Of a DNA stretch of 64,000 bases, positions 5,913 to 64,000 are shown in pieces. Source of the stretch: an uncultured Chloroflexia bacterium (GTDB lineage: Bacteria; Chloroflexota; Anaerolineae; Anaerolineales; E44-bin32); contig CAWAND010000010.1 in NCBI GenBank assembly GCA_963783335.1, positions 1,125,476-1,189,475 of the forward strand. Direction: 5' to 3'. Under the pieces are notes generated by a model, which was not told the origin of the DNA, searched no databases, and saw only the letters and a program-made list of their open reading frames with translations. How positions within the stretch are numbered: the first letter of the stretch is position 1; every line of letters begins with the position of its first letter. Both the position numbers and the translations under genes were made by a program.

Positions 5913-5928
5913 TGTGAATTCCTTCACA
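5913..5928. promoter_or_regulatory. TGTGA-N6-TCACA palindrome (CRP/FNR-type site), copy 1
   Basis: tTTGTGAattccTTCACAa. Lies 9 nt after the Fe-S gene stop and 224 nt upstream of the E1-alpha ATG. Confidence 0.5.
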
Positions 5929-6151
5929 ATAGCGTGATCGTGGTGGAAAGACCCCGCCGGATTCAAAGCGGTTAAGATTAGAGATGAAGCCCCACCGTTC
6001 AGCTGCGTCCTTGCCATAAGTATTCGGGGCTGGTTGACGAGGGTGAAAGTAACCACCAAGTGGCCCGGTTCCCCAAGGCCGGCCGGCTGATTCGCCGGGC
6101 CACATGGCTGCAAGACTCACGTGCATGGACAAGCTCGAAGGAGGCTGCAGG

Positions 6152-7159
6152 ATGGCCGTGACGCAGGAGGCGCAATCCGTCTTGAGCAAAGAAACCACGC
6201 TCGAGATGTATTGGACGATGCTGCTGGCGCGTCGGCTGGATGAACGCGCCTGGGTACTGCATCGGCAGGGCAAGATCGCGTTTCATATCTCAGGAATCGG
6301 GCATGAAGCCGCACAGGTGGGCGCCGCCTTCGCCCTGCGGCGGGGCAGCGATTGGTTTGTCCCTTACTATCGGGATTTGGCCCTTTTGCTGGCCCTGGGT
6401 ATGACCCCCAAGGAATTTATGCTGGGCCTGATGGGCAAGAAGGGCGAACCCAATTCGGGCGCTCGACAAATGCCCAGCCATTGGAGCCTTCGCCGGGCGA
6501 ACGTTGTCAGCCATTCATCTCCGGTCTCAACCCAGACCACGCACGCGGCCGGGATCGGCTTGGCCATGAAACTGCGCGGGGATGACGGCGTGGCCATAAC
6601 CTCGGTTGGGGAGGGCGGCACATCGCAGGGTGAATGGTATGAAGGTGTGAACTGGGCCGCTGTCCACAAGCTGCCAGTGATCTTCCTCGTCGAGAACAAC
6701 AACTATGCCATCTCGGTCCGCCGGGAGCTCCAGATGGGGGTAGACAGTGTGGCCGACAAGGCCAAGGGGCTGGGACTTGTCGGAGTGAGCGTAGATGGCC
6801 TGAACGTCCAAGAGGTCTACCGTGTGGTGAGCGAAGCGGCGAAGCGAGCCCGAACCGGAGAGGGCCCAACGCTGGTGGAGGCCCGAGTCAACCGCATGAC
6901 GCCGCATTCATCTGATGACGATGACCGGACCTACCGTTCCAAAGAGGAGCTGGATGTGATGAAGCGGGATGATCCGCTGACCCGCTTCCAAACCCAATTG
7001 ATTGAGGATGGCCTGCTTGATCAGGATCAGGCGGATGCCCTCGATGTGCGGGCCAAGAAGGCGGTTGACGAAGCCACCAAGCATGCCGAGGCGGCGCCCT
7101 ACCCGTCCGACGAAGAAGCCACGTATCCGGTGTATGTCGAGGACGTGCGCCATGACTGA
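6152..7159 (+). CDS. 2-oxoacid dehydrogenase E1 component, alpha subunit (TPP-dependent; PDH/BCKDH type)
   Basis: SD GAAGGAGG at 6137-6144. TPP-binding region GEGGTSQGEWYEGVNWAAVHKLPVIFLVENNNYAIS. Confidence 0.9.
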   Translation: MAVTQEAQSVLSKETTLEMYWTMLLARRLDERAWVLHRQGKIAFHISGIGHEAAQVGAAFALRRGSDWFVPYYRDLALLLALGMTPKEFMLGLMGKKGEPNSGARQMPSHWSLRRANVVSHSSPVSTQTTHAAGIGLAMKLRGDDGVAITSVGEGGTSQGEWYEGVNWAAVHKLPVIFLVENNNYAISVRRELQMGVDSVADKAKGLGLVGVSVDGLNVQEVYRVVSEAAKRARTGEGPTLVEARVNRMTPHSSDDDDRTYRSKEELDVMKRDDPLTRFQTQLIEDGLLDQDQADALDVRAKKAVDEATKHAEAAPYPSDEEATYPVYVEDVRHD

Positions 7160-8138
7160 GATCACGCTGATCGAAGGTCTCCGCCAGGCCATGGACGAAG
7201 AACTTGCCCGCGATGAGGATGTGTTTATCGTGGGCGAGGATGTGGGTCCCCGCGGCGGCGTTTTCCGGGCCACGATGGGCCTGTTTGAGAAGTACGGAGC
7301 AGAGCGGGTGATGGATTCCCCGCTGGCTGAGCTGTCGATTGTGGGCGTTGGGATTGGGGCCGCCCTGTACGGCATGCGCCCAATCTGTGAAATCCAGTTT
7401 GCGGACTTCATCCATCCGGCGTTCAACCAAATCGTGAGCGAAGCCGCCAAAATGTGCTACCGCTCCAACGGCGATTGGACGGTGCCGATGGTCATCCGCG
7501 CCCCGTACGGGGGCGGTATCGGCGGTGGTCTGTACCACTCGCAGTCGGTGGAATCTTTCTTCGCCCATGTCCCAGGGCTGAAGGTCGTCATCCCGTCCAC
7601 GCCCTACGACGCCAAGGGATTGCTGAAATCGGCCGTCCGAGATCCCAATCCGGTGATGGTGTTTGAGCCCAAAAAGGGCTACCGACTGATCAAAGGTGTT
7701 GTGCCCGAGGATGAGGAAGTTCTCGTGCCGCTTGGGAAGGCCAAGGTGACGCGGGAAGGCACCGATCTGAGCGTCTTCGCCTATGGGATGATGCACCACT
7801 ATTGTCTGGAGGCAGCCGAGACCCTGGCCGGAGAAGGGGTTCAGGTCGAGGTGGTGGACCTGCGCAGCTTGCTTCCGCTGGACAAGGCAGCCGTCCTGGG
7901 GTCGGTTCGCAAGACCGGCAAGGCGCTGGTGGTGTACGAGGACAATTTGACATGCGGCTACGGCGCCGAAATTGCGGCCATCGTGGCCGATGAGGGTTTC
8001 ACCTTTCTGGATGCGCCGGTGAAACGGTTGGCCGGACCAGATGTGCCGGCCATGCCATACAGCCATCCGCTGCAGGATTGGTTCATGCTCAATCCGGATA
8101 AGATCGCGGCTGCCATGCGCGATTTGGCAGCCTATTGA
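7152..8138 (+). CDS. 2-oxoacid dehydrogenase E1 component, beta subunit
   Basis: 8-nt overlap with the alpha subunit. Transketolase-like pyrimidine-binding domain (VMDSPLAELSIVGVGIGAALYGMRPI). Confidence 0.9.
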   Translation: MTEITLIEGLRQAMDEELARDEDVFIVGEDVGPRGGVFRATMGLFEKYGAERVMDSPLAELSIVGVGIGAALYGMRPICEIQFADFIHPAFNQIVSEAAKMCYRSNGDWTVPMVIRAPYGGGIGGGLYHSQSVESFFAHVPGLKVVIPSTPYDAKGLLKSAVRDPNPVMVFEPKKGYRLIKGVVPEDEEVLVPLGKAKVTREGTDLSVFAYGMMHHYCLEAAETLAGEGVQVEVVDLRSLLPLDKAAVLGSVRKTGKALVVYEDNLTCGYGAEIAAIVADEGFTFLDAPVKRLAGPDVPAMPYSHPLQDWFMLNPDKIAAAMRDLAAY

Positions 8139-8207
8139 GCCGGATCTGTGGACGGCTGGCGCGTAGGCTCGGCGAAGGCGATCGGAAGCTAGGAGGCACC
8201 ACTCAAG

Positions 8208-11017: not shown

Positions 11018-11043
11018 ATCCGCCGTCCCATATTCGGGAAGTT

Positions 11044-11059
11044 TGTGAGAACTTTCACA
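11044..11059. promoter_or_regulatory. TGTGA-N6-TCACA palindrome, copy 2
   Basis: tTTGTGAgaactTTCACAa. Lies 26 nt after the lpdA stop and 25 nt before the citrate synthase ATG. A TAGGAT box at 11069-11074 lies between site and ATG. Confidence 0.5.
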
Positions 11060-11084
11060 AAGAAAGGTTAGGATCCCCAGGCTT

Positions 11085-14477: not shown

Positions 14478-15218
14478 TCAGCCCGCAAACTGCCAGGGGC
14501 AAAGGCGCTGGTGCAGCCAGTCGACAGCGAAATACAGGCCCAGGCCCAACAGGCTCATGGCGAGCACGCCGGCATACATCTTGGGGTAGTTGAGCATGGT
14601 GCTGCCGTTGAGATAGATGTAGTAGCCGAGGCCGCGCTGGGTAGCGAACAACTCGGCGATGTAGAGCACGGCCACGGCCGTGCCAACGGATTGGCGCAGC
14701 GCCGTCAAAATGGCCGGCAAACTGGCCGGCAGGTAGACGAAGCGGAACAGGGCACGACGGCCGGCTCCGAGGCTGGACACCGAGTGAAGCAGCTCCGGTC
14801 GAATGCCAGCCGCCTGATCCCGCACCAGGACCAGGATCTGGAAGAACAGGATCATGAAAATGATCACAATCTTTGGTAAATCCCCAACCCCAAGGAAGAG
14901 CAAAACCACAGGCACCAGAACGACCTTTGGGATAGGGAAGAGGATGTAGATCAAGGGCGCAAACAGGCGGTCCAGGCGCTTGGATTGGCCCAGGACCAGG
15001 CCGGCCGGCACGGCCAGCAGGACCGAGAGGGCCATGGATGCCACAACTCGCCACAGGCTGGCCAGGAAATCAACCCCCAGCGAGCGCGGCAGCTCGGTGG
15101 CGAAGGTCGCCAGGACGATCCACGGCGGGGGGAGGATCGGCCGATGAACCAACCAGGCCAGCCCCTGCCAAATGACCAGCAGAGCCAAGGCTGCCAGGCC
15201 CAGCTTGCCGCGCGTCAT
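14478..15218 (-). CDS. ABC transporter permease (NitT/TauT-like)
   Basis: About 6 TM helices with a typical binding-protein-dependent permease layout. 4-nt overlap with the ATPase gene. Confidence 0.8.
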   Translation of the reverse strand: MTRGKLGLAALALLVIWQGLAWLVHRPILPPPWIVLATFATELPRSLGVDFLASLWRVVASMALSVLLAVPAGLVLGQSKRLDRLFAPLIYILFPIPKVVLVPVVLLFLGVGDLPKIVIIFMILFFQILVLVRDQAAGIRPELLHSVSSLGAGRRALFRFVYLPASLPAILTALRQSVGTAVAVLYIAELFATQRGLGYYIYLNGSTMLNYPKMYAGVLAMSLLGLGLYFAVDWLHQRLCPWQFAG

Positions 15219-16018: not shown

Positions 16019-16978
16019 TTATTTCGGCAGGTAGGCGGACGTGACCGAATCCGTATAGCTCACATCGGTTTCGACCAACCCCTTGTCGTGGGTCCACGCC
16101 AGGACGTCCTCGAACTGCGCCTTGGAGGGCACGCTGCCAGCCGGGAAATCCGGAATCTTGTAGCTGCCGATCAGCGGGGCGGGGACCAGGCTCTTTTCGG
16201 TCAGGAGATCGGACCACTTGGACTTGTCGGCATTGACATCGGCGGCCGCCTTCTGGACGGCGGCCAGGAACCCGCGCACGGCCTGCGGATGGTCCTTGAT
16301 AAAGGCAGAGCGGAAGGAAATCACGCTGTTGCCGATCGGCGGGTCCGAACTGTCGTCGACAATGACTTTGGCGCCCTGCTGAATTGCAAGCGAAGCCAGG
16401 GGATCGGGCAGGTTGGCCGCCTTGAGTTCGCCCGAGTTGAGCAGCGCCATACGATCCGGGATCTTGGGCACGGCGAGTGTCTTGATGTCCTCCGGGGCGA
16501 AGCCGGCGTCCTCGAGCAATCGGTCGGTGGTGTATTCGATAACCGTCCCTTCAGAGACCCCGATCTCGACGCCCTTGAGATCCTCGATGGTATTGATGCC
16601 GCTGTCTTTGGCGGCCAATATGCGGTACTGCGGGAATTCCTTCGACGCAGTGCGGGCGAAATCGACGATTTGGATTTGGGTCTGGTCCTTGTTGTAGAGC
16701 ATGGTCGAGACAAGATCGTTGATCATGGCGTCGGCTTGTTCGGACTGCATCAGTTGATCGCGTTCGGCGGCCGACGACACCGGGATGAACTTAACCTGGA
16801 CGCCCTCCTTTTCGAAATAGCCTTCCGCCTCGGCGACGTACATGGGAAGCGCGTCGAGAATTGGGAGGACGGCCACCCGCACGGTCTCCGGCCCGGATGT
16901 GCCTCCGGAGCAGGCTGAGAGCAGCGGGGTGAGCAGGATGGCAGGGAGAACAAAGAAAGACAGAAGACGTTTGACCAC
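16019..16978 (-). CDS. ABC transporter substrate-binding lipoprotein (NMT1/THI5-like)
   Basis: Lipobox LLSACSGG. VRVAVLPILDALPMYVAEAEGYFEKEGV is typical of NMT1/sulfonate-type binding proteins. Confidence 0.8.
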   Translation of the reverse strand: MVKRLLSFFVLPAILLTPLLSACSGGTSGPETVRVAVLPILDALPMYVAEAEGYFEKEGVQVKFIPVSSAAERDQLMQSEQADAMINDLVSTMLYNKDQTQIQIVDFARTASKEFPQYRILAAKDSGINTIEDLKGVEIGVSEGTVIEYTTDRLLEDAGFAPEDIKTLAVPKIPDRMALLNSGELKAANLPDPLASLAIQQGAKVIVDDSSDPPIGNSVISFRSAFIKDHPQAVRGFLAAVQKAAADVNADKSKWSDLLTEKSLVPAPLIGSYKIPDFPAGSVPSKAQFEDVLAWTHDKGLVETDVSYTDSVTSAYLPK

Positions 16979-16990
16979 AGAGCAGCTCCT

Positions 16991-17875
16991 TTATACCAGC
17001 GACACTGGAAGCAGCAGGGCTCCCAGCGTGCCAACAAAGAGCGTGATGCTGATCACGCTGTTAAGGTTGAAAAACGCGAAATTCAGACGGCTCAGATCGG
17101 AGGGTGTGACCAGGACATGTTCGTAGGCCAGCAGAGCGAGTGTGACGATGGTCCCCAGCCAGTAGGGGAGTCCCAGATGAAGGCTCCATCCGAGGCCGAT
17201 CAACAGCAGGCCGGTCACGATGTGGCTTGCGGAGGACAGGCGCAAGGCGGTGGGAATGCCGTAAATGGCTGGGATGGCGTGCAGGCCTTCTTTGCGGTCG
17301 AACTCGACGTCTTGGCAGGCATAAATCATGTCGAAGCCGCCGATCCAGAATGTCACCACCCCCAGCAGCAACCAGGCGGGGAGGTCGGCGGGGGTGAACA
17401 GCGAGCCGCGGACGGCAGCCCATGCACCCATCGGAGCCAGCCCGTCGGTGAAACCCAGAATCAGATGCGAAAGGCTTGTAAAGCGCTTGGCGAAGGGGTA
17501 TCCAAGGACAAACAACAACGCCCCAGGCAGCAGACGAAACGGAAGCGGCCCGAGCATGTATGCCGCCAGCGCCAGCACGATAGCAGAGAAGGCCATCCCC
17601 AGCCATGCCGTCGAGGCTGCGATCTGGCCAACCACGAGCGGCCGCCTCGCCGTACGTGGATTGCGTGCATCCAGTTCACGGTCGGCCAGACGATTGGCAC
17701 CCATGGCGAGCGTTCGAGCGGCGACCATTGCCAGGGTGATCCAAATGAAATCATGCCAGGAGGGGAGCCCCTCGGCGGCCAGGATCATCCCCAAATAAGC
17801 GAATGGGAGCGCGAAGATAGTATGCTCGAACTTGATGAGTTCGAGAAATGCACGGGTACTTTTCAGGACGCGCAT
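16991..17875 (-). CDS. UbiA-family aromatic prenyltransferase (menaquinone/ubiquinone type)
   Basis: Asp-rich motif NRLADRELDARNPRT, polytopic membrane protein. Start taken at MRVLKSTRAF. Confidence 0.85.
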   Translation of the reverse strand: MRVLKSTRAFLELIKFEHTIFALPFAYLGMILAAEGLPSWHDFIWITLAMVAARTLAMGANRLADRELDARNPRTARRPLVVGQIAASTAWLGMAFSAIVLALAAYMLGPLPFRLLPGALLFVLGYPFAKRFTSLSHLILGFTDGLAPMGAWAAVRGSLFTPADLPAWLLLGVVTFWIGGFDMIYACQDVEFDRKEGLHAIPAIYGIPTALRLSSASHIVTGLLLIGLGWSLHLGLPYWLGTIVTLALLAYEHVLVTPSDLSRLNFAFFNLNSVISITLFVGTLGALLLPVSLV

Positions 17876-17961
17876 GGACAGTCCATGAGGGGTTTGGCAG
17901 GGGTACGGACAACTGCTGAATTCTAACATGTCGGCAGGGCTGCGGAATGGTGAGAATCAAG

Positions 17962-17998
17962 CGGCCGCTGGTTTGGTATGGTTCCAAACCAGCGGCCG
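17962..17998 (-). terminator. hairpin terminator after the Mo-oxidoreductase gene
   Basis: Perfect 15-bp stem CGGCCGCTGGTTTGG/CCAAACCAGCGGCCG with a 7-nt loop. T-rich tract on the minus strand (CTTGATTCTC). Confidence 0.6.
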
Positions 17999-18038
17999 GA
18001 GGCACCCGTCGCCTGCTTGTTGCCAGGCGGCAGAATGG

Positions 18039-19646
18039 TTAGATGCGAACGCGCATGCTGTCTGTGCCGGTGGCGCCGTCCGGGTAAGGGTCGCCCGGCT
18101 GGGTGATCTGCAGGTCACCGTTGCCATCGTAGGCGCGTACCTGGAAGTTGTGGCTGCCGGGGGACGGATCCCAATCATAGCGCCATTGCACCCAGGTCAA
18201 CGGGCTGAGCGCCGGGAGGCGAAGCTCAACTTCGGTCCAGGGGCCTTCATCGACGGAAAGTTCGACCTTGCTGATGCCGCGCGTGCCGGCCCAGGCGATG
18301 CCGCCCACCGGAATCTTGCCGGTGCCGGGATCGGGTTGATCGACGGCCACCGTGTCGATGACAGAAGTGGTTCTCGGGATGGCGGTTTGGCTCCAGCCGC
18401 GCTCGACCCAGTATCCACGACCGCTGTTGTCGACAGCTTCCATATGGGTAATCCATTTGGGCTGCTTCATCCCGTAGTGGCCGGGAATGTAGATCCGCAG
18501 GGGGAAACCATGCTCGATCGGAAGCGGCACACCGCCCATCGAGTGAACCATGAGCACGCGTTCATCCATCGCTTCTTCGATGGAAAGGCTCTCGTAGAAT
18601 CCGTCGGCAGCTTCCATTTGGATCGCCGTGGCACCATCGCGCAGCCCGACTTCGGCAAGCAAGTTTCTGAGGGGCACACCTGTCCAGCGGGCGGTGCTGG
18701 TGAGATCGCCGCCGACCGGATTAGAGATACACTGCATCGTCACCACCTGGCTCACGGATGGACGGTTGACCAGATCCGGAATCTTGTAGGTGGTGGGTTG
18801 AACAACCAGGCCGTCAAACTTCATCTCCCAGGTGGAGCCGTCAAGCGCCGGCGGCAGGGTGTTGATGTCGATGCGGTAGAAATCGGCATTGGAGGTCAGC
18901 TCGGGTCGGGTTCCAGGCGCTGGCGGAATCCGCGCTTCAAGGGTTGCTTGGGGCGGCGAAGCCGCTGGCCCCGAGGTATCGCCGCTGCCGATATTCGGCG
19001 TCGCGCCGGTGGCGGAAGCCGTCGGCCTGGGTCGACTTGCGATCGAGGCCAGCGCGTATGAGCCCAAGCCGATGCCGAGCGAGGCACCCAGCACATAAAG
19101 GAACTGGCGGCGGTCGACGACGCCAATCTCTGTCGTCTCGGCGTGGGCCCGGCCCGCACCCAGCAGGAGCCAGGTTAATACGTAGCTCCAAGCAAACGAA
19201 AGGGCGGCGATCCACAGGATCGTGGTCAACCAGCCCACCGGTCCAACACCCAGGGCCGCCTCGACCGCTATGGACATCAGTGCCACCAGGCCGCCGCCAA
19301 CCAGGCTGATCATGCCGCGCCTTTCCGGGCGGATTCGCAGCGCATATGCCAGGGCCACACCAAACACGGCACCCCCAGCGATGAACTGACCGATGGCAAT
19401 GGTCTGCTCGATCAGCTTGGCGGTGGAGTTGGTCGCGCCCAAGTTGAGCCCGCGGATGAGACTGACCATGGTATGAATAACGGTCGTGATGAGTGCACCG
19501 GGCAGAATGCGGGTCATCCAGTCAAAGCTGTCGAACGGAATGAACGGAAGCTTCAGCCACTGCAGGCCAAGGTAGTTCAGGGCCACAAAGGCAATCCCCG
19601 TGAGTAGCCCGAGCGCGGCTGCCGACAAGATCCACATACGTTTCAT
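18039..19646 (-). CDS. membrane-anchored molybdopterin-dependent oxidoreductase (sulfite-oxidase fold)
   Basis: GGAGG SD before ATG 19646. About 6 N-terminal TM helices, Mo-domain (MQCISNPVGG with Cys ligand; GFPLRIYIPGHYGMKQPKW), and C-terminal Ig-like domain. Confidence 0.8.
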   Translation of the reverse strand: MKRMWILSAAALGLLTGIAFVALNYLGLQWLKLPFIPFDSFDWMTRILPGALITTVIHTMVSLIRGLNLGATNSTAKLIEQTIAIGQFIAGGAVFGVALAYALRIRPERRGMISLVGGGLVALMSIAVEAALGVGPVGWLTTILWIAALSFAWSYVLTWLLLGAGRAHAETTEIGVVDRRQFLYVLGASLGIGLGSYALASIASRPRPTASATGATPNIGSGDTSGPAASPPQATLEARIPPAPGTRPELTSNADFYRIDINTLPPALDGSTWEMKFDGLVVQPTTYKIPDLVNRPSVSQVVTMQCISNPVGGDLTSTARWTGVPLRNLLAEVGLRDGATAIQMEAADGFYESLSIEEAMDERVLMVHSMGGVPLPIEHGFPLRIYIPGHYGMKQPKWITHMEAVDNSGRGYWVERGWSQTAIPRTTSVIDTVAVDQPDPGTGKIPVGGIAWAGTRGISKVELSVDEGPWTEVELRLPALSPLTWVQWRYDWDPSPGSHNFQVRAYDGNGDLQITQPGDPYPDGATGTDSMRVRI

Positions 19647-22762: not shown

Positions 22763-23029
22763 CTAGCTGTCCGAGGGCAGAAACCTGGCTGCCAACTCGC
22801 TCCAGCTGGGCTCGGTGAGCGTGGTCCCATCTTCAAAGACGATGGTGGGCACACTGACAAAGCCATGGTTGATCTGCTTGACGGTGGCGCGCGCCTCCTC
22901 CGAGAGTTCGACATCGATCCACTCGTAGGCGATGTCGTGCTGCTCCATGAAGCGTTTGGCGAGACGTGTGTCGGCGCACCAGTCAGATCCATACATCCGG
23001 ATTGTGCCTTCTTTCACAATATCAGGCAT
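22763..23029 (-). CDS. glutaredoxin-like thioredoxin-fold protein (single active-site Cys)
   Basis: IRMYGSDWCADTRLAKRF...VSVPTIVFEDG. The CxxC position reads CADT. Start at ATG 23029 overlaps the zwf stop by 8 nt. Confidence 0.65.
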   Translation of the reverse strand: MPDIVKEGTIRMYGSDWCADTRLAKRFMEQHDIAYEWIDVELSEEARATVKQINHGFVSVPTIVFEDGTTLTEPSWSELAARFLPSDS

Positions 23030-26488: not shown

Positions 26489-26512
26489 CATCAGAATTCG
26501 CTCCAGCCGGTT

Positions 26513-26528
26513 TGTGAAATCCTTCACA
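26513..26528. promoter_or_regulatory. TGTGA-N6-TCACA palindrome, copy 3
   Basis: tTTGTGAaatccTTCACAt. Lies 24 nt after the ferritin stop and 17 nt before the ferritin terminator stem, between convergent genes. Confidence 0.4.
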
Positions 26529-26545
26529 TATCGCCTTCTCTGACT

Positions 26546-26572
26546 GGGACAGCCATTTGGCTGTCCCTTTTC
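26546..26572 (+). terminator. rho-independent terminator after ferritin
   Basis: GGGACAGCC-attt-GGCTGTCCC followed by TTTTC. Confidence 0.8.
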
Positions 26573-26685: not shown

Positions 26686-27909
26686 TCAGAACAATCTTGC
26701 TTGAACGCCGGGTCTCCGTCCATCAAGTGTGATGTACGGTGCTGCCCGTTCCGCCAAGATGCCCAGGCGGCGGAGCTGGGAAACATCCGTCAGGCGGCGG
26801 ACGCGACGAGCCTTCAAGACCGCGCCCACACCCTTGAGCCCCAGGCCGGGGACACGCAGCAGCTGCTCTCGGTCGGCCAGGTTTAGCTCGACGGGAGCTT
26901 CGGCAAGGGCCAGATCGGCAAAGGCGCGCTTGGGGTCGCGATCCAGGGGAAGCCGGCCTTGGGGGGTGAAGGGCAGATCTTCGAACTCGAAGCCATAATC
27001 CCTGAGAAGGTAGGAGGCTTCATACAATCGCTGCTGGCGGAGCGGATCCTCGGCCGGATGGCCGTCCAGCGGGGTATCCGGCACCGGCGAGAAAGCCTCG
27101 AAGTAGGTTCGGCGGACACCCCACTGTGAAAACAGGTTGGCGACCGTGCTGAGGATTTCGACATCATCTTCGCCCGCCGCGCCAACCACAAATTGGGTCG
27201 TGCTCGAGGCCCAACGCCCGCGCCAGCCGTGCCGAGATGGCAGCTCGCGCCGGATTTCGGCCGCCCACCTGAGCGGAGGCAGCAGCTCATCAAGGTAACC
27301 CTTGTGCGGCGCCAAACGTGCCAGCCGGTTCGCGTTGGGAGCTTCCAAGTTAATGGAGACCCGGTTGGCGAGCTGCATGGCACGCAGAACCTGCCCCTGA
27401 TCTGCGCCCGGCATGAGCTTGAGGTGGAGGTAGCCGCCATAACCCAGGCGGTGGCGGAGGATCTCGGCCGTGTCCAGCAGTTTGTCCTGGGTGTGTGCGC
27501 CGCCGGCGAACACACCGCTGGAAAGAAACAGCCCTTGGACGCGTCCGCTCTGATGCACCGAAAAGAACGTCCGGGCCATCTCTTCGGGTTTGAAGGTCAC
27601 CCGGCGCGAGCGGCGGCCGGCGCGGAAAGGGCAGTAGAGGCAATCCCGTTCGCAGGCTGTCGTCAGCATGGCTTTCAGCAACGGAATGCGCCTTCCACCG
27701 GCCGAGGTCTGGTAGATCGGAATCGGCTGACTCTTGCCCGGAACTTCGACCCAATCGGATACACTGCCAGCGCGAGGCTGCCCACCGGCCGGTGAGTATC
27801 CGCACGCTCGGACCGAAGCCGGCGATCGAGATTCAAGACCTCGCCTCTCGCCGGCCTGCTCGAAGTGCGAGTCGTTGGCCACTATCGCCAACTTATCCAT
27901 CGCATCCAT
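26686..27909 (-). CDS. radical SAM protein of the putative DNA modification/repair type
   Basis: CERDCLYCPF (CxxxCxxC) and a C-terminal helix-hairpin-helix (EQLLRVPGLGLKGVGAVLKARR). Confidence 0.7.
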   Translation of the reverse strand: MDAMDKLAIVANDSHFEQAGERRGLESRSPASVRACGYSPAGGQPRAGSVSDWVEVPGKSQPIPIYQTSAGGRRIPLLKAMLTTACERDCLYCPFRAGRRSRRVTFKPEEMARTFFSVHQSGRVQGLFLSSGVFAGGAHTQDKLLDTAEILRHRLGYGGYLHLKLMPGADQGQVLRAMQLANRVSINLEAPNANRLARLAPHKGYLDELLPPLRWAAEIRRELPSRHGWRGRWASSTTQFVVGAAGEDDVEILSTVANLFSQWGVRRTYFEAFSPVPDTPLDGHPAEDPLRQQRLYEASYLLRDYGFEFEDLPFTPQGRLPLDRDPKRAFADLALAEAPVELNLADREQLLRVPGLGLKGVGAVLKARRVRRLTDVSQLRRLGILAERAAPYITLDGRRPGVQARLF

Positions 27910-27915
27910 ACAGCA

Positions 27916-27924
27916 AGAATAGCA
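27916..27924 (-). promoter_or_regulatory. extended -10-like box TGCTATTCT, 6 nt before ATG 27909 (leaderless-type)
   Basis: Reverse complement of agaatagca. Confidence 0.35.
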
Positions 27925-28080
27925 CAGATGTTCTAGTCTGTCCACAGGTCATCCCGTTGCACGGCCCGTTAAGGATGGCGTAACGATTTGTGGGCATAGT
28001 GAAGATCGTCCACCTGGTGTCTTTTCGAGCCGGAATTGACTCGTGCCGTGCGAGGCCTGGGCTGAAATCATCTGATAGGC

Positions 28081-31362: not shown

Positions 31363-31380
31363 AGAGCTCGAACCTCCATT

Positions 31381-31396
31381 TGTGAAAAGCTTCACA
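31381..31396. promoter_or_regulatory. TGTGA-N6-TCACA palindrome, copy 4
   Basis: tTTGTGAaaagcTTCACAt. Lies 18 nt upstream of the bioY ATG (abutting its SD) and 53 nt after the herA stop. Confidence 0.5.
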
Positions 31397-31449
31397 TATC
31401 GCCCGGTCCGGATCACGTGACAACCGGCCTACGAGGGATGGACAAAGAG

Positions 31450-39859: not shown

Positions 39860-41620
39860 ATGAGCGCCAACATCGAGCCCGATACCCTGCTCGCGATCGA
39901 CGTCGGCAGCGTGCACACCCGTGCCAGTCTGTTCGATGTGGTGGAAGGCCGCTATCGTCTTGTGGCCTCTGGCAGGGCACTGTCGACCGCCGGCCCGCCA
40001 TTGTTTGACGTGCGGGAAGGTGTCCGCATCGCGCTCGATCAACTGCAAGCTGTCACGGGCAGGAAGATGATCGATGACACCGAGACGCTCATCATGCCGG
40101 TCACAGGGGGCGGGATGGGGGTGGACATCTGCGTGGCGACCGGATCGGCCGGCCCCACCCTGAAGGCCGTGCTGGTCGGCCTGATGGATGACATTTCGCT
40201 CGAGAGCGGCCGCCGGTTGGCCGAATCAACCTACCTGACGCTGATCGAAGAAATCGGCCTTACCGACCGCCGTGGGGAGGACGAGAAACTGGACTCGATC
40301 CTCAGGGCGAAGCCAGACGTGTTGTTGGTGGTCGGCGGAACGGACGGCGGCGCGGCAGCCTCTGTTCTTTCGATGGTCGATCTGGTCAGCCTTTCGACGG
40401 GATTGATGCCGGACGGCAACCGGCCGCACGTCGTGTTTGCTGGGAACCGGGCGCTGGCGGCTCACGTGGCCGAACGTTTTACCGAAGCCACACCGGTCGC
40501 ATTGACGGCCAATATTCGTCCCGATCTGGAACAAGAAGATTTGGCGCCGGCTCGTACCAGGCTGGCCGAGGTCTTGTCTGAGTCCCGGGCGAGCAAAGTG
40601 GCCGGGTATGACGAACTGGTGCAATGGAGCGGCGGCCACATGATGCAGACGGCCGACGCCTTTGGCCGGGTGATTCGCTATCTAAGCCAGGTCTATGACC
40701 CCGCCAAGGGTGTGTTGGGGATCGACCTGGGAGGCAGCCATACCACGCTGGCGGCTGGCTTTTCAGGTGACCTGAGGCTGAGTGTCCGCTCGGATATGGG
40801 CCTGGGAGAGTCTCTTCCTGGTCTCATTCAGCACACAAAATTGGAGAGTATCAGCCGCTGGCTGCCAGAGGAGATCTCCGACGCCGACATTCTGAATTAT
40901 GTCCACAACAAGGCCAACTATCCGGCGACCATCCCGGCCGAGAAGGATGAACTCTATCTTGAATTCGCCCTTGCCAGAGAGATTATGCGCAGTTCGCTCA
41001 AGCTGGCCCGCAGGGGCTGGCCGAGGAAAGGCAAACTACGAGATTCGATCTTGCTGCCGCCGATGGAGCCCATTTTGGCCGCCGGAGGGATCCTGGCTCG
41101 CGCGCCGCATCCTGGCTATGCCGCTCTGGCTATCCTGGATGCCTTTCAACCCGTGGGGATCACAACCCTTGTCCTGGACCCTCATGGTCTGACGCCTGCT
41201 CTAGGAGTCGCCGCCGGACCGGCGCCAATGGTGAGTGTGCAGGTGTTGAACAGCGGCAATTATGTCAGCTTGGGGACGGTTGTCTCCCCCGTGGGTGGTG
41301 GAAAGTTGGGCCGCCCGGCCCTGCGAGTGCGGTTGGATAAAGAAAGTGAAGGTGAGGGCATGGAAGGGGAGGTCCGCGCCGGCCAGCTGGTCATCCTGCC
41401 GCTTGGACTGGGTGAAACCGGCCGCTTGACGCTGCGTCCCGAAAAGGGCTTCGACGTCGGCTTCGGCGGGCCCGGCAAAGCTGGTGCGCTGCGTGTGTCA
41501 GGCGGAATTCTTGGGTTGATTATCGACGCACGCGGGCGGCCGTTGCCTTTGCCGCTGGATCCCGAGGCACGGCGCGAGTTGGCCAGCAAGTGGCTCTGGG
41601 ATATCGGGGTGCGAGAATGA
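39860..41620 (+). CDS. GlmL/MutL-family actin-fold (ASKHA) ATPase-like protein
   Basis: LLAIDVGSVHTRASLFD (phosphate-1 motif), LLVVGGTDGG, and GIDLGGSHTT (second actin-fold lobe). Confidence 0.65.
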   Translation: MSANIEPDTLLAIDVGSVHTRASLFDVVEGRYRLVASGRALSTAGPPLFDVREGVRIALDQLQAVTGRKMIDDTETLIMPVTGGGMGVDICVATGSAGPTLKAVLVGLMDDISLESGRRLAESTYLTLIEEIGLTDRRGEDEKLDSILRAKPDVLLVVGGTDGGAAASVLSMVDLVSLSTGLMPDGNRPHVVFAGNRALAAHVAERFTEATPVALTANIRPDLEQEDLAPARTRLAEVLSESRASKVAGYDELVQWSGGHMMQTADAFGRVIRYLSQVYDPAKGVLGIDLGGSHTTLAAGFSGDLRLSVRSDMGLGESLPGLIQHTKLESISRWLPEEISDADILNYVHNKANYPATIPAEKDELYLEFALAREIMRSSLKLARRGWPRKGKLRDSILLPPMEPILAAGGILARAPHPGYAALAILDAFQPVGITTLVLDPHGLTPALGVAAGPAPMVSVQVLNSGNYVSLGTVVSPVGGGKLGRPALRVRLDKESEGEGMEGEVRAGQLVILPLGLGETGRLTLRPEKGFDVGFGGPGKAGALRVSGGILGLIIDARGRPLPLPLDPEARRELASKWLWDIGVRE

Positions 41621-41661: not shown

Positions 41662-42729
41662 ATGGCGATTACATATCTTCCCCCTGTGCGGCACGTCCTG
41701 CCGCTAACCACGGTACGCCGAACGCGGGAACTTCCCGCAGCCGGCGCGGTCACGGTGCGCGTCAACGAAAAGGTCCAGGCCCAAGACGTTCTGGGTGAGG
41801 CCGAGGTGGCCCCCAGGCACTTCTTCCTGGATTTGGCTCGTGGCCTGGGTGTGTCCGAACTTCAGGTTCAGAAGTATCTGGTTAAACAAGCGGGAGACCT
41901 GGTGAACGCCGACGAGATCATCGCTGGCCCTGCCGGCGTGGCCAGGCGCACTGTCCGTGCGCCTTCGGATGGCCGGATCATCAGCTTCACTGGCGGCAAG
42001 GTCCTGTTCCAATCACGCGGCCGGATGGTCGAAGTCAAGGCCGGATTCCCGGGCTTGGTCATTGCCACCGACGGTGTGCAGCGGATCACACTCGAGACCA
42101 CGGGTGCCCTTATTCAGGGCGTTTGGGGGAACGGTAAGCAGGACTATGGCCTGATGCGCATGGTGGGCGATGGCCCTCGAAGCCGTCTACAGACGCGATT
42201 GATGGACATTCAACTGCGCGGAGCCGTGATTGTTGCTGGCCAGTGCGACCACCCGGCACCTCTCCATCAAGCCGGAGAGCTGTCCCTGCGAGGCCTTATC
42301 TTGGGGGGCATGGCTGCCGCTTTGATCCCCATGGCACGGCGCCTTCCTTACCCGATTGTCGTCCTGGGCGGCTTTGGGGATTTCCCCATTAGCGCGCCGA
42401 TCTTCAACCTGCTGGCGAGCAACGCCGGCCGTGAAGTTGCCGTTGAAGGAAGAACGCCTTCATCGTATGAGATCTATCGGCCGGAAGTCATTATTCCGCT
42501 CCCATCGGATCGGAGCGTTGATTTGCCAGAAGACGTGATCCCGCTTGGCCCAGGTGTGCGCGTGCGTATCTTACGAGCTCCCTTGCAAGGGGTTGTCGGC
42601 GAAGTGCGCGAAATCTTGCCCAGAGCCGAAGAAATGCCTAGCGGAATGCTCGCCCGAAGTGCCGTCGTGTCGATTGAGGGATCGGCACCAGCCAGGGTCC
42701 CCCTGGCAAACCTGGAAGTGTTGGGCTAA
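41662..42729 (+). CDS. hypothetical protein (355 aa) with barrel-sandwich-like N-terminal part and KOW-like C-terminus
   Basis: The ORF is intact. Fold assignment rests on weak pattern resemblance only. Confidence 0.45.
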   Translation: MAITYLPPVRHVLPLTTVRRTRELPAAGAVTVRVNEKVQAQDVLGEAEVAPRHFFLDLARGLGVSELQVQKYLVKQAGDLVNADEIIAGPAGVARRTVRAPSDGRIISFTGGKVLFQSRGRMVEVKAGFPGLVIATDGVQRITLETTGALIQGVWGNGKQDYGLMRMVGDGPRSRLQTRLMDIQLRGAVIVAGQCDHPAPLHQAGELSLRGLILGGMAAALIPMARRLPYPIVVLGGFGDFPISAPIFNLLASNAGREVAVEGRTPSSYEIYRPEVIIPLPSDRSVDLPEDVIPLGPGVRVRILRAPLQGVVGEVREILPRAEEMPSGMLARSAVVSIEGSAPARVPLANLEVLG

Positions 42730-46376: not shown

Positions 46377-46385
46377 ATTCTAGCA
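46377..46385 (-). promoter_or_regulatory. extended -10 box TGCTAGAAT
   Basis: Reverse complement of attctagca. Lies about 120 nt upstream of the phosphohexomutase ATG. Confidence 0.45.
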
Positions 46386-46433
46386 GGCGCCCAAGGCGCC
46401 GTCAACCTGAGCCCGCCAGGTTTGCTTTCTGCT

Positions 46434-46449
46434 TGTGAAGAAATTCACA
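46434..46449. promoter_or_regulatory. TGTGA-N6-TCACA palindrome, copy 5
   Basis: cTTGTGAagaaaTTCACAa. Lies 14 nt after the solute-binding-protein stop. Its centre is about 71-72 nt upstream of the TSS implied by the 46377-46385 box. Confidence 0.5.
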
Positions 46450-46463
46450 ACCCGTGTTTGGGG

Positions 46464-53876: not shown

Positions 53877-54454
53877 GAAGTCCCCTCCCGATCGATTCCC
53901 CGGACGGTGGGTCCGAAGCGGAGATCACCCCGACTAGCTTATGCCATGACTCTTGAAGCGGCAAGTAGCGAATGCTCCGAACGCGGCTGAAGATCGGCGT
54001 CCGGCATCGAGCGCTTGAGGTGTGAACACAACAAAAGGCCTGCGCTTCCAGTTTCGGAAGGTCTTGGCCAAGGCGGTCCATTCCGCGGGAAAGAATGAAG
54101 TTGAAGCGTCGATTATAGTCCAATCACCAGCCGCCACTCGCCAGACATCCCCCCTGTTAGTACATTTTTTAAGCATAGCGGTCCTTGACTTTCAGCCAAG
54201 GCGTGCATAAGGTTATGACGAACGGAGCCTCAGGCCACCTGAGGGCTGCACGGCCCCCGTCGGCTATGGGATCATTCAACCGGCTGCCACGAGCAAGCGG
54301 CAGTTTGAAGCAAGCAAGCGCCGCGGTTGGATATGCGCCCTTCCCTATAGCCTTAAGGCGCGGGTCACCCGGCGAGAGTGGAAAGCCGGCTGCCTAAAGG
54401 CGTGATGGGGCTCTTTCTTTTCTCCAGACTTGTCAGCCAGCCGGTTCATTCCTC

Positions 54455-62006: not shown

Positions 62007-62060
62007 TCGGGACGATGGGCTTCCAGCGGGCTCATCTACTGCGGGTCGACCGGGTCACTG

Positions 62061-62069
62061 TGTTAGAAT
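62061..62069 (+). promoter_or_regulatory. extended -10 box TGTTAGAAT upstream of maf
   Basis: cacTGTGTTAGAATccc read directly. Lies 59 nt before ATG 62129. Confidence 0.45.
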
Positions 62070-62128
62070 CCCGCCCCAGATATGCCTGCGGCTGATTCGG
62101 CTCAAGGCGAAGGTGGAACTTGGTTTCG

Positions 62129-62801
62129 ATGCTTTCGAAGTTGACGATTGTGTTGGCCTCGGCCTCGCCCAGGCGACGCCAGCTGCTGGCCGAGTTCTGG
62201 GGCTGAGGTGCGCGTTCATCCGGTGGGCGTTTCAGAGCGTGCCCGGCCGGGAGAGACGCCCGAGTCGTTGGTGCAGCGACTGGCAGACGCCAAAGCCGAG
62301 GCAGCCTTGACGTCCGCCCATGACGCCCAGCTTGTGCTGGGCGCCGACACGATTGTCGTGAGGGACGGACGGATCCTCGGCAAGCCAGCCTCGGCTGAAG
62401 ACGCCGAAGCCATGCTTATGAGCCTTGCCGGGCGAACGCACGATGTGCTTACCGGGCTGACCCTGATCGAGCCCGTTTCTGGACGACGTGCTGCCTGCGT
62501 CACCCTTTCTCGGGTTCCCATGCGAGGCTATTCCCCAACGGAGATCCATGACTATGTGGCCACCGGAAGTCCGATGGATAAGGCTGGCGCCTACGGCATA
62601 CAGGATGAGGACATTAACCCGGTCGATTTGGCGGCTTTCGCCGACTGCTACACGAACGTGATGGGCATGCCGCTGTGTCAATTGGGCCAGGCGCTGAGCG
62701 CGCTTGGCTATCGCCCGCCGCGCGACCTGGGGCAGATCTGCCAGTCCTATGGTCGTCACAAGACCGCCCCCTGGCAGGGGGCGGTCCAGGGTGCCGCATG
62801 A
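62129..62801 (+). pseudogene. maf: Maf-like nucleoside-triphosphate pyrophosphatase with a frame disruption in a GGGG run (62199-62202)
   Basis: Frame 2 reads MLSKLTIVLASASPRRRQLLAEFWG then stops at 62204-62206. Frame 0 continues AEVRVHPVGVSE...LGADTIVV... to 62801. Deleting one G gives an uninterrupted Maf. Confidence 0.8.
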
Positions 62802-64000
62802 AGCGACTGCTGCCCGCCATTCTGATTGTGATATTTTTCACAAGTAGTTGCGGGCTTTTCAGCTCGGGGCCGCGCACGCCCGAACCAACCGGGACGCTCC
62901 CCGGTCCATCGGTGCGCAACACGCCCGCGCCAGATGCCGAGGCGGCGGCGACCCAGTTTCTGGACGCCTGGAAGCAGAGCGACTACGACAGCATGTATGG
63001 CATGCTGAGCTCACTGACCCAGGCGGGCATCAGTAAGCAGGCGTTCGTCGATCGCTATGATTCGGTCGTCACGCAAGCCGCACTGAGCGGGATCGACACC
63101 GAGATCGTCTCTTCGCTGGTCCACCCGGATTCAGCCCAGGTACGCTACCGCGTCACCTTCCACAGCACGGTGGTGGGCGACTTCGTGGTTGAGACCTACA
63201 TGAATCTGACCCGAGAAGACAACCAGTGGAAGGTGGCTTGGTCGGACAGCGCGATCATGCCGGATTTGGCCAATGGCAACCAGCTCTCGATGCAGGTCAA
63301 CACACCAGTTCGGGCCAACATCTACGATCGCAACGGCCTGGCGTTGGCCACCCAGGGGGACATCGTCGCCCTGTGGATCGTGCCCAACCAGATCGGAGAC
63401 GGTGACGCTGAGTTCGAACATGCTGTCGGCCTTGAGCCGCCTGCTCGACCGCCCCGCCGACAATATCAAAGCGCTCTACGACGACATCCGCTCGACCGAT
63501 TGGCGGGTCAACCTGGGCGAAGTGTCGTTGGACGACTTCCAGCGCTATCAGGGAACGTTGGCAGCCACCGGCGGTGTGCAGTGGGCTGTGTACCAGGGAC
63601 GCTATTATCCCAACGACGGCTTGGCACCGCATTCGGTCGGCTATGTAGCCCAAATTCAGGCCGAGCAAGTTGAGAAGTATCAGCGCCTTGGCTATCGCAA
63701 GGATGCCTTTGTCGGCCAGGATGGGCTGGAAGCGGTATACGAAAGCGATCTGCGCGGCACGCCGGGCGGCACACTCTACGTGCTGGATGCGGGGAACAAC
63801 GTGCTCAAGGAGCTCGCCTCGCGCGATCCAGAACCCCCCTCTGCCGTTTACACGAACCTGGACCGTGACCTTCAGCTCCACACACAGCAGGCGCTGGCCT
63901 CGATGCCAGAACAGGTGCGCGCGGCGGCGGTCGTGTTGGACAGGGACTCGGGGGCCGTACTGGCGATCGCCTCCTCGCCCGGGTTCGACCCCAACCTGTT
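62798..64000 (+). pseudogene. penicillin-binding protein 2-type transpeptidase, 3' end outside window, with a frame disruption near 63405-63422
   Basis: ATGA overlap with the maf stop. Signal/lipobox MKRLLPAILIVIFFTSSCG. Frame 2 turns to nonsense after ...NQIGDGDAE. Frame 0 continues NMLSALSRLLDRPADNIKALY...AAVVLDRDSGAVLAIASSPGFDPN to the window edge. Confidence 0.75.
62827..62842. promoter_or_regulatory. TGTGA-N6-TCACA palindrome, copy 6 (intragenic)
   Basis: aTTGTGAtatttTTCACAa within codons 10-15 (signal peptide LIVIFFTS) of the PBP gene. Confidence 0.25.

Follow-up and report, generated by a model that had tools for sequence, protein, structure and literature searches.

An 18-bp palindrome recurring in a Chloroflexota lineage very probably marks operators of one homodimeric global regulator

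The 64,000-nucleotide stretch of DNA analysed here (the window) raises the question of what, if anything, reads a palindrome, TGTGA-N6-TCACA, that recurs through it. Scanning recovered exactly six perfect copies (at 5913, 11044, 26513, 31381, 46434 and 62827), the same six that an earlier sequence-only reading of this DNA had listed, compared with a mean of 0.02 in dinucleotide-preserving shuffles of the window, none of 100 of which reached six; with up to one mismatch there were 8 matches against 1.28 expected. The symmetry extends into the flanks, as that reading had held: the 18-mer TTGTGAANNNNTTCACAA matches all six perfect copies with zero or one mismatch and a seventh, imperfect but conserved, copy with two, and up to three mismatches yielded 8 matches in the window against 1.07 expected. 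Unrelated loci with comparable GC content, 1.42 Mb in all, contained no match to the 18-mer at up to one mismatch. These counts exclude a chance origin. We number the copies as follows, with mismatches to the 18-mer.

5912..5929, unstranded: site 1, TTGTGAATTCCTTCACAA, 0 mismatches
11043..11060, unstranded: site 2, TTGTGAGAACTTTCACAA, 1 mismatch
26512..26529, unstranded: site 3, TTGTGAAATCCTTCACAT, 1 mismatch
31380..31397, unstranded: site 4, TTGTGAAAAGCTTCACAT, 1 mismatch
46433..46450, unstranded: site 5, TTGTGAAGAAATTCACAA, 0 mismatches
62826..62843, unstranded: site 6, TTGTGATATTTTTCACAA, 1 mismatch
23002..23019, unstranded: site 7, imperfect, TTGTGAAAGAAGGCACAA as read on the minus strand, 2 mismatches

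The copies share the consensus tTTGTGAAwnnwTTCACAAa (TTGTGAA-N4-TTCACAA), which is strictly two-fold symmetric over 18-20 bp, is AT-enriched in its central 4 nt and carries information only in positions 0-19; beyond these 18-20 bp we found neither information nor conserved sequence in the flanks, nor any clusters or pairs of copies. Among the 14 half-sites of the window copies, 12 have T before TGTGA (position 1) and 11 have A after it (position 7). Solitary half-sites were not over-represented, as 9 of the 11 that occur (4.8 expected) lie inside palindromes. As had been claimed, five of the six perfect copies fall between genes, although intergenic DNA makes up just 8.7% of the window (P about 3 × 10−5); the sixth occupies codons 10-15 of a lipoprotein signal peptide. 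Site density is about one per 9 kb, with a site in roughly one intergenic region in eight, which implies hundreds of sites per genome. The motif is confined to a narrow clade; a syntenic sister lineage (L127-L129; 79-80% identity) has no sites at all.

Within that clade, the half-sites of sites 1, 2, 3, 5, 6 and 7 and of the core of site 4 are retained in relatives whose proteins are 79-97% identical, with substitutions in the spacers, even between convergent stop codons and within the rare-codon region of a signal peptide. The symmetry, the retained half-sites and the changing spacers make it very probable that the palindromes serve one homodimeric global regulator as DNA operators. While the motif, its statistics, conservation and positions can be read directly from the sequences, they point to protein binding indirectly: one sequence-specific homodimeric transcription factor, a global regulator in this Chloroflexota lineage, would bind the double-stranded palindromes, each monomer reading one 7-bp half-site (TTGTGAA), with the 4 AT-rich bp between them setting the half-site centres about one helical turn apart.

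Site 1 is separated by 8 nt from the stop codon of the preceding CCG/4Fe-4S protein gene, and an E1alpha-E1beta-E2-E3 2-oxoacid dehydrogenase operon lies at least 175 nt downstream of it. The upstream placement had been proposed correctly, at a distance of 224 nt; we count 175 nt to the first ATG of the E1 alpha open reading frame, which is not conserved in relatives, and the larger figure may correspond to a later start. Site 1 is kept in L001 with a different spacer, and in L031 its half-sites are conserved around a spacer 1 nt longer. Site 2 lies 25 nt past the stop codon of E3 (dihydrolipoyl dehydrogenase) and is followed at once by the ribosome-binding region, with about 24-25 nt between the site and the ATG of citrate synthase (11085); its half-sites are kept in L001 (citrate synthase 90% identical) and L031 (75%), again with differing spacers. 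Site 7 fills the 25-nt gap from the G6PD stop codon (23022) to the ATG of a mycoredoxin-like gene (22996), its spacer containing a Shine-Dalgarno-like GAAGG. The form TTGTGAA-N4-(G/A)GCACAA, with variable spacers, is common to L036, L037, L038 and L126, and the site is degenerate in L125. Site 4, which starts 52 nt past the stop codon of HerA, leaves 3 nt between its end and the GGAGG ribosome-binding site of bioY, and its core is 18 nt before the ATG (31362, minus strand). L125 has a perfect core (TGTGACTCTCTTCACA) and L126 retains one half-site, both with the same ATGGAGG-ATG arrangement downstream.

Site 3 lies in the 3' region of a ferritin gene that converges with a radical-SAM gene, about 23-24 nt past the stop codon; no promoter was found near it. 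It is identical in L035 and degenerate in L126 and L038, and its ortholog in L125 (TTGTGAGAATATTCACAA) sits within a 49-nt spacer between two convergent stop codons. Ferritin has its own intrinsic terminator 16 nt beyond the site, so the palindrome at 26512 is not the ferritin terminator.

26546..26567, plus strand: canonical ferritin intrinsic terminator, GGGACAGCC-attt-GGCTGTCCC followed by TTTT

The stop codon of a solute-binding-protein gene lies 13 nt before site 5. Downstream of the site a promoter is predicted for a phosphogluco/phosphomannomutase (phosphohexomutase) gene, its −35 box 27 nt and its −10 box 51 nt away, and from it a 5' leader of about 115 nt would run to the ATG (46254).

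46377..46405, minus strand: predicted sigma-70-type promoter, TTGACG-17-TAGAAT with TG before the −10 box, 10 of 12 matches (0.1 expected in shuffles)

Relative to the inferred start site, the centre of site 5 is at about −71.5 in the window and −72.5 in L122. The predicted promoter is conserved in L122 and L120, and site and promoter are kept together in L122, at a gap of 28 nt, and in L120/L121, at a gap of 23 nt. L116-L119 have neither; there a new perfect site stands upstream of a lipid-kinase gene near a TATAAT box, and in L116 it lies at about −64 from the TATAAT-based start, with 338 nt separating it from the annotated stop codon before it. This loss of the phosphohexomutase site and gain of a lipid-kinase site is turnover of the kind typical of regulons. 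The contexts given by the sequence-only reading for citrate synthase (25 nt), bioY (18 nt), the phosphohexomutase −10 box (about 50 nt, by our count 51) and the ferritin 3' region were all borne out.

Site 6 is intragenic. It starts 24 nt past the Maf stop codon (62801), which overlaps the ATG (62798) of a PBP-like lipoprotein gene, and is read as codons I-V-I-F-F-T of the signal peptide. These include rare codons (ATA, AGT and ACA make up 5%, 6% and 12% of their families), and the site is kept in L123, whose protein is 79% identical, while neighbouring signal-peptide residues have diverged. Because the codons are rare and the site is conserved where adjacent residues changed, it appears to be under selection at the nucleotide level inside a gene.

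Regarding the identity of the binder, a Rex-family protein is tentatively our most likely candidate, because the 18-bp consensus is identical to the Rex operator. The generalised form of that operator is TTGTGAANNNNTTCACAA (PMC6391272, PMC2883068, PMC3441419), written TTGTGAAW4TTCACAA in S. aureus (PMC2883068), and the majority consensus of the window copies equals it, including T at position 1 and A at position 7. The match to Rex boxes (ROP) of Gram-positive bacteria, Thermotogales, Deinococcus-Thermus and Chloroflexi thus covers T1/A18, A7/T12 and the AT-rich centre. Rex orthologues reportedly occur in Chloroflexi, and Rex sites are said to be gained and lost between close relatives, as are the sites here. 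As in Rex regulons, several sites lie over the 5' ends of target genes and the targets include central carbon and redox functions; sites 2, 4 and 7 adjoin or overlie the ribosome-binding region of the gene that follows, a placement that fits a repressor rather than an activator, and several targets have an NAD(H) or redox link (the E1-E2-E3 complex, citrate synthase, the mycoredoxin-like gene with UbiD after it, and ferritin). Deletion of Rex in S. mutans up-regulates pyruvate dehydrogenase genes (PMC3441419). Were the binder Rex, an NADH/NAD+-sensing winged-helix/Rossmann repressor, the bound protein would hinder initiation at overlapping or adjacent promoters and, more speculatively, would act as a roadblock to read-through from the upstream gene at junctions without a promoter of their own. 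Its response to NADH is suggested by the motif identity; as NADH rose relative to NAD+ the protein would leave the DNA, and redox coupling would cover the 2-oxoacid dehydrogenase complex, citrate synthase, the mycoredoxin-UbiD (quinone) genes, phosphohexomutase and others.

Several observations weigh against Rex. Pfam and tblastn searches of the window and of 1.67 Mb of further loci turned up no rex gene (PF06971 plus PF02629). The density of about one site per 9 kb is, to our knowledge, above that of any described Rex regulon, by roughly ten times or more; the predicted C. bescii regulon has 63 sites (PMC6391272). Site 5, some 70 nt upstream of a strong promoter, is activator-like in position, where a simple repressor would not act, and between the two convergent genes at site 3 there is no initiation to repress; the intragenic site is likewise unlike described Rex regulons. 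Many targets have no NAD(H) link, with no obvious redox logic for bioY, the PBP-like lipoprotein or the lipid kinase, and de-repression of NADH-producing dehydrogenases at high NADH would be counter-intuitive. Finally, the absence of sites from the syntenic sister lineage is unexpected for an ancient regulator with a universal motif.

Some of these difficulties ease if the operators belong to a cNMP-domain/HTH dimer of the CRP/FNR family, a plausible but doubtful reading in which a global regulator bound to TGTGA-N6-TCACA would activate from upstream sites (phosphohexomutase, dehydrogenase operon, lipid kinase) and repress at gene 5' ends (citrate synthase, bioY, mycoredoxin). Such a dual activator and repressor accounts for both classes of site position, and a master regulator matches the density and mixed functions more closely than do the Rex regulons described so far; CRP/GlxR-type global regulators come closer to the site density seen here. 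In favour stand the class-I-like position of site 5 in the window and L122, upstream of a conserved strong promoter, and the L116 site at about −64. Class I activation requires helical phase, however, and the gap from site to −35 box is 27, 28 and 23 nt in the window, L122 and L120, which would place the L120 site on a different helical face; phasing to the promoter is thus not conserved here, as class I activation would demand. The convergent and intragenic sites are as hard to account for as with Rex.

The sequence of the motif is similarly divided. Its 16-bp core is the classical CRP core, and it shares the GTG/CAC core and spacing, the global scale and the mixture of activator-like and repressor-like positions with operators of E. 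coli CRP, SdrP and actinobacterial CRP/GlxR. The FNR half-site is TTGAT, which the palindromes do not match. In E. coli the CRP consensus is AAATGTGATCTAGATCACATTT (PMC8465061), with A rather than T before TGTGA and T rather than A after it. Thermus thermophilus SdrP, which prefers AWTGTRA-N6-TYACAWT (PMC8465061), is among the family members that also favour T before TGTGA, but leaves unspecified the inner A/T pair that is conserved here. The conserved A7, T12 and AT-rich centre are features of Rex operators found in neither consensus. Thus, where the sequence-only reading had proposed a CRP/FNR-type regulon, operators of a dimeric factor are upheld, and the family label is not established, given the flank bases and the FNR half-site. 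That reading had rightly noted no CRP/FNR-family gene in the window, and Pfam and tblastn found no cNMP_binding/HTH_Crp gene there or in the lineage loci. A single weak CRP-like tblastn match fell in L091, an unrelated locus.

A further regularity, pointed out earlier for the intergenic copies, is that each of the seven window sites begins 2-52 nt beyond a stop codon whose gene is transcribed in the direction of the site, and in the three long spacers the site lies at the end nearest that stop codon. This could reflect a different, possibly lineage-specific DNA-binding protein acting as a conditional roadblock or insulator against read-through at gene boundaries, which we consider unlikely. 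It would suit the conservation of the ferritin site in the 49-nt convergent spacer of L125, the conserved site 6 just past the Maf stop codon and inside the next gene, and a narrow-clade motif that is missing from the syntenic sister lineage and far denser than known Rex regulons; on the gene map of the window, moreover, none of about seven divergent promoter regions has a site. That absence is not significant, however, since the expected share is under 20%, and in a compact genome a site upstream of a co-directional promoter is automatically near the previous stop codon. The L116 site is far from one, no precedent or candidate protein was identified, and a new family need not be invoked when the motif exactly equals a known operator consensus.

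A role at the RNA level is very unlikely; the element would then be transcribed, in 3' UTRs and between cistrons, as an AU-rich hairpin that stabilises, terminates or processes transcripts or modulates translation of the next gene. Every copy does lie in a likely transcribed region shortly past a stop codon, several adjoin a ribosome-binding site, and a palindrome would form the same hairpin in both convergent transcripts. The predicted hairpins have stems of 5-8 bp and loops of 4-8 nt (6-8 bp and 4-6 nt at the six perfect sites), and those of sites 1 and 3 are somewhat more stable than shuffled sequence (z −4.2 and −4.5). Yet the AU-rich stems are weak (−4.2 to −9.1 kcal/mol), none was called in a terminator scan or is followed by a U-tract, no Rfam family matches and no loop sequence is conserved. 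The stem sequence is invariant rather than covarying, and inner changes are uncompensated: an inner position of site 2 is G.U in the window and A.C in L001, and site 7 retains two mismatched inner pairs in all relatives. Site 5, being upstream of a conserved promoter, would fall outside the phosphohexomutase transcript. The 3'-UTR hairpin that had been offered as an alternative is thus not supported.

A repetitive extragenic palindrome, miniature mobile element, uptake-sequence-like repeat or compositional artefact would be in keeping with a high copy number, lineage restriction and mostly extragenic placement past stop codons, but is extremely improbable, as nothing is conserved beyond the palindrome itself, copies are neither clustered nor paired, and single half-sites are not enriched. 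The likeness to REP/BIME elements and intercistronic stabiliser hairpins lies in being palindromic, abundant and past stop codons between co-directional or convergent genes; the element here is much shorter, AT-rich and without a conserved flank, its orthologous positions are kept across species-level divergence with spacer turnover, its half-site is fixed rather than covarying, and one copy is embedded in coding sequence.

A pattern search of the window recovered six perfect copies of TGTGA-N6-TCACA at exactly the positions reported by the sequence-only reading (5913-5928, 11044-11059, 26513-26528, 31381-31396, 46434-46449 and 62827-62842), against a mean of 0.02 expected from dinucleotide-preserving shuffles. 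Allowing one mismatch in the core gave 8 matches in the window against 1.28 expected. G+C content is 61-64% throughout the window, a composition that does not favour an AT-rich palindrome. The symmetry proposed to extend beyond the core proved real: the 18-mer TTGTGAANNNNTTCACAA, in which each half-site reads TTGTGAA, fits seven sites with 0-2 mismatches (none at 5912 and 46433; one at 11043, 26512, 31380 and 62826; two at the imperfect site at 23002). In a profile of these seven sites the majority base equals the TTGTGAANNNNTTCACAA consensus at every specified position, with T at half-site position 1 in 12/14 half-sites, TGTG invariant, A at position 6 in 13/14 and at position 7 in 11/14, and an AT-enriched centre. 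Once the profile was symmetrised, information was confined to positions 0-19 and the flanks carried none. The 7-mer half-site occurs 11 times in the window against 4.8 expected and 9/11 occurrences lie inside palindromes, so the unit is the dimeric palindrome and not a repeated word. Two further near matches, 42075-42090 (TGTGCAGCGGATCACA, one core mismatch) and 14852-14869 (TCATGAAAATGATCACAA, three mismatches), were not taken as sites; both lie inside ORFs, lack flanking symmetry and fall within chance expectation.

We assigned gene contexts from Pfam and NCBIfam profile searches and from direct reading of the sequence.

Palindromic sites, with 18-mer coordinates, and the predicted promoter next to one of them
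Site 1, 5912: 8 nt past the stop of the CCG/4Fe-4S protein gene and at least 175 nt upstream of the E1alpha-E1beta-E2-E3 (2-oxoacid dehydrogenase) operon
Site 2, 11043: between the E3 stop codon and the citrate synthase ATG, directly upstream of the ribosome-binding region
Site 7, 23002, imperfect: occupies the 25-nt gap between G6PD and a mycoredoxin-like gene, with UbiD next after the latter
Site 3, 26512: between the ferritin stop codon and the canonical ferritin terminator; ferritin is convergent with a radical-SAM gene
Site 4, 31380: starts 52 nt past the HerA stop codon and ends 3 nt ahead of the bioY GGAGG
Site 5, 46433: 13 nt past the solute-binding-protein stop and 27 nt upstream of a strong predicted promoter
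Predicted phosphogluco/phosphomannomutase promoter: TTGACG-17-TAGAAT with TG, leader about 115 nt
Site 6, 62826-62843: in the signal-peptide codons of a PBP-like lipoprotein whose ATG overlaps the Maf stop codon

As had been noted, five of the six perfect copies are intergenic, in a window of which only 8.7% is intergenic (P ~3 × 10−5), and the density of about one site per 9 kb corresponds to roughly one in eight intergenic regions. The proximity to a preceding stop codon likewise held up, with all seven sites starting 2-52 nt past the stop of a gene transcribed toward them. None of the window's divergent promoter regions, about seven in number, contains a site, an absence that is not statistically significant. 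Sites 2, 4 and 7 abut the ribosome-binding region of the downstream gene and must therefore overlap its start site or leader. Site 3 has no nearby promoter, and site 5 lies at about −70 from its predicted promoter; relative to the predicted start its centre falls at about −71.5 in the window and at −72.5 and −67.5 in two relatives (L122 and L120), so its phase is not strictly kept; the usual centres of activating CRP/FNR-family sites are about −41.5, −61.5 and −71.5. A predicted sigma-70 promoter before bioY using the half-site TTCACA as its −35 was set aside, since its −10 overlaps the conserved start codon.

We compared these sites with orthologous loci fetched from relatives (L-numbers). 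The closest genome matches to the window citrate synthase are uncultured Chloroflexia/Chloroflexota MAGs (L001, contig CAWDZQ010000004.1, 90%; L031, 75%), and the sources of homologues of other window proteins name Anaerolineales or Chloroflexota. Site 2 is kept in both L001 and L031, and site 1 in L001; in L031 the ortholog of site 1 (~4795-4815, TTGTGAGTATTCTTCACAA) has intact half-sites and a spacer one base longer, N7 instead of N6, reflecting either a genuine insertion that inactivates the site or an indel error of the MAG assembly. Site 7 is retained as TTGTGAA-N4-(G/A)GCACAA in L036, L037, L038 and L126. L035 has an identical copy of site 3, L126 and L038 have degenerate ones, and in L125 (ERZ25039533 contig_37214) it reads TTGTGAGAATATTCACAA and lies within a 49-nt spacer separating two convergent stop codons. 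The core of site 4 is perfect in L125, and L126 retains one of its half-sites. Site 5 and its promoter are both kept in L122 and L120/L121, with gaps to the −35 box of 28 and 23 nt against 27 in the window, and both are missing in L116-L119, which carry a new perfect site upstream of a lipid-kinase gene where the window has none. Perfect 18-mers were found also in L001, L116 and L122. Because spacer bases differ between orthologous sites, the half-sites stand out as footprints.

Site 6 is kept in L123, whose protein is 79% identical, while neighbouring residues have changed. It encodes I-V-I-F-F-T using ATA and ACA, followed by AGT, codons that account for 5%, 12% and 6% of their respective families in the window; given these rare codons at 62826-62843, the nucleotide sequence, and not just the peptide, appears to be under selection. 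The distribution of the motif is narrow: a syntenic sister lineage (L127-L129; 79-80% identity) has no site at all, and 1.42 Mb of loci outside the close lineage contain no 18-mer with one mismatch or fewer and only two with 2 mismatches, against six and one, respectively, in the window.

Homodimeric helix-turn-helix and winged-helix proteins read two 7-bp half-sites about one helical turn apart, with an AT-rich centre, on B-DNA. A dimeric protein would be expected to bind the palindromes in this way, and we consider it highly probable that they are operators, read on DNA by a homodimer.

The motif had been described as a CRP/FNR-type signature, which stands for the core, present as six perfect copies of the 16-bp CRP core TGTGA-N6-TCACA, and fails for the extended CRP consensus and the FNR half-site. 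FNR half-sites are arranged as TTGAT-N4-ATCAA, and direct reading found no TTGAT at the window sites. The E. coli CRP consensus is AAATGTGATCTAGATCACATTT (PMC8465061), from which the window motif differs at both core-flanking positions, having T not A before TGTGA (12/14) and A not T after it (11/14); Thermus SdrP, which prefers AWTGTRA-N6-TYACAWT (PMC8465061), has the outer T in common with the window motif and leaves the inner A unspecified. The generalised Rex operator, as quoted in two papers that both cite Ravcheev et al. 2012 (PMC6391272, PMC3441419), is TTGTGAANNNNTTCACAA, identical to the window consensus, and the S. aureus form is TTGTGAAW4TTCACAA (PMC2883068). Against this operator two window sites match at 18/18 positions, four have one mismatch and one has two. 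The 2012 work of Ravcheev and colleagues is said to report Rex orthologues in Chloroflexi.

Rex is our tentative candidate for the binder, favoured because the full 18-bp consensus matches, because sites 2, 4 and 7 occupy repressor-like positions, and because several targets are NAD(H)- or redox-linked, with pdh genes de-repressed in an S. mutans Rex mutant (PMC3441419). If motif identity is a guide, the bound protein would be Rex, leaving the DNA when NADH rises. A CRP-family global regulator is possible, if doubtful: it would suit the observed density (a site every 9 kb or so, in roughly one of eight intergenic regions), the varied set of targets, and the location of site 5, some 70 nt upstream of a strong predicted promoter that is itself conserved, although the phase of that site is not kept in L120. 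Neither Rex nor the CRP family explains the conserved convergent copy and the conserved intragenic copy, which hint that binding matters where control of initiation cannot be the purpose. Another DNA-binding protein with a boundary or roadblock role would be an unlikely binder.

No Rex gene, which would pair an N-terminal winged-helix DNA-binding domain with a Rossmann NAD(H)-binding one (PF06971 and PF02629), was found among the ~57 window ORFs by Pfam (with unannotated ORFs also searched at a relaxed E up to 1), or by tblastn in the window and 129 loci (1.67 Mb) using B. subtilis and T. aquaticus queries. The window also has no CRP/FNR gene by Pfam (~57 ORFs) and tblastn, in agreement with the sequence-only reading, and the same methods found no cNMP-binding/HTH_Crp gene in the window or the lineage loci. 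Our literature search on CRP-type or Rex motifs in Chloroflexi returned nothing relevant. A distant relative, L124 (PBP-like protein 54% identical, no palindromes), encodes at 16952-18241 an alpha/beta-hydrolase fused to a class III nucleotidyl cyclase domain, which shows only that related Chloroflexota have cNMP signalling. Among other known sites, the LacI-family operator (TTGTGAGC/GCTCACAA) was rejected as 2 bp shorter; the ARG box (TGAAT-W4-ATTCA), the Zur and LexA boxes and the parS, SlmA, Noc and MatP sites were rejected because their half-sites differ in spacing or sequence.

The proposal that the palindromes act as transcribed 3'-UTR hairpins found no support, and we regard an RNA element as very improbable. 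Predicted folding energies are only −4.2 to −9.1 kcal/mol, the stems are rich in A and U, and a U-tract is lacking after them; the terminator scan calls none of them, and ferritin has a proper terminator of its own right behind its copy. The stem sequence is fixed and without covariation, changes at inner positions are uncompensated in relatives, and the loops are unconstrained in the profile. Site 5, moreover, lies upstream of a conserved predicted promoter. No Rfam family matches the palindromes, and both an intrinsic terminator and a structured 3'-UTR RNA were rejected, as we found neither a stable G+C-rich stem with a U-tract nor compensatory pairing. A repeat element or chance is scarcely credible: information ends at 18-20 bp and single copies sit at orthologous positions, unlike a REP/MITE-like repeat, the flanks carry no information that would mark a longer repeat or mobile element, and single half-sites are not enriched as in an uptake-sequence-like repeat.

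Returning to the operator reading, we read the sites as a regulon signature of a known type in an uncultured lineage, whose density, clade restriction and boundary positions are unusual and are not yet evidence of a new mechanism. Speculatively, the bound protein could act as a roadblock to read-through at junctions without their own promoter, namely E3/citrate synthase, HerA/bioY, G6PD/mycoredoxin, Maf/PBP and ferritin/radical-SAM. In a broader and improbable scenario, a narrow Chloroflexota clade would have amplified a Rex-box-type operator until its near-perfect copies numbered in the hundreds, preferentially at transcription-unit boundaries, including those between convergent genes and just inside downstream ORFs, and the bound sensor would serve as a genome-wide conditional roadblock or insulator, with redox (or cNMP) state setting read-through more than initiation. 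Were the binder Rex or CRP-like, the sites would provide the first glimpse of a global regulon from an uncultured lineage of soil/sediment Chloroflexota, in which one signal would join pyruvate/2-oxoacid dehydrogenase, citrate synthase, quinone and thiol-redox genes, sugar-phosphate interconversion and biotin uptake. The motif is defined well enough for whole-regulon reconstruction from MAGs alone, and its density, clade restriction and convergent-end and intragenic copies merit a genome-wide look.

Several neighbouring genes are of separate interest. The radical-SAM gene convergent with ferritin (26686-27945) has a match to TIGR03916 (putative DNA modification/repair radical SAM protein) that falls short of the curated cutoff. 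L038 lacks this gene, and ferritin there is followed by a co-directional response-regulator/histidine-kinase/AhpC-like operon; L125 and L126, which are more distant, have it. At 33750-41620, NurA, a small ORF and HerA lie on one strand, divergent from a cluster of DUF6754, four unannotated proteins (211, 804, 233 and 355 aa) and a PF13941 'MutL'-family protein, and this gene order is kept in all relatives (L116, L120, L125, L127, L128), the motif-less sister lineage included. The PBP-like gene (62798-63673; L123 1334-3595) is split in two: one ORF carries the MecA_N and PBP dimer domains, and in L123 the transpeptidase is encoded by a separate ORF that comes next. The window ORF stops at 63673 and covers only ~70% of the homologues' alignment.

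Two leaders carry other conserved noncoding elements. Right ahead of the first ATG of the E1alpha ORF lies a strong G+C-rich inverted repeat (6060-6103, GTGGCCCGG...CCGGGCCAC), with a 21-nt block, TTCAAAGCGGTTAAGATTAGA, upstream of it at 5962-5982. Both are kept in L001 and L031, where the surrounding leader diverges, and may serve the dehydrogenase operon as a structured leader and as a site for a second regulator; the ATG at 6104 is not conserved, so the true E1alpha start is probably downstream. The second element is a ~200-250 nt noncoding stretch at 54160-54415 (− strand), in the gap between a HAD hydrolase and a DAGK/YegS lipid kinase, with orthologs at L116 1962-2215 and L120 1928-2172. 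Rfam gave no match for it, even with E relaxed to 1, and it was not called as a tmRNA. The stretch is highly conserved in relatives, its flanks diverge, and RNAalifold predicts a long closing helix (GAGCCCCA... / ...UGAGGCUC) and 65 pairs, 6 with compensatory changes, making it a candidate unannotated structured RNA.
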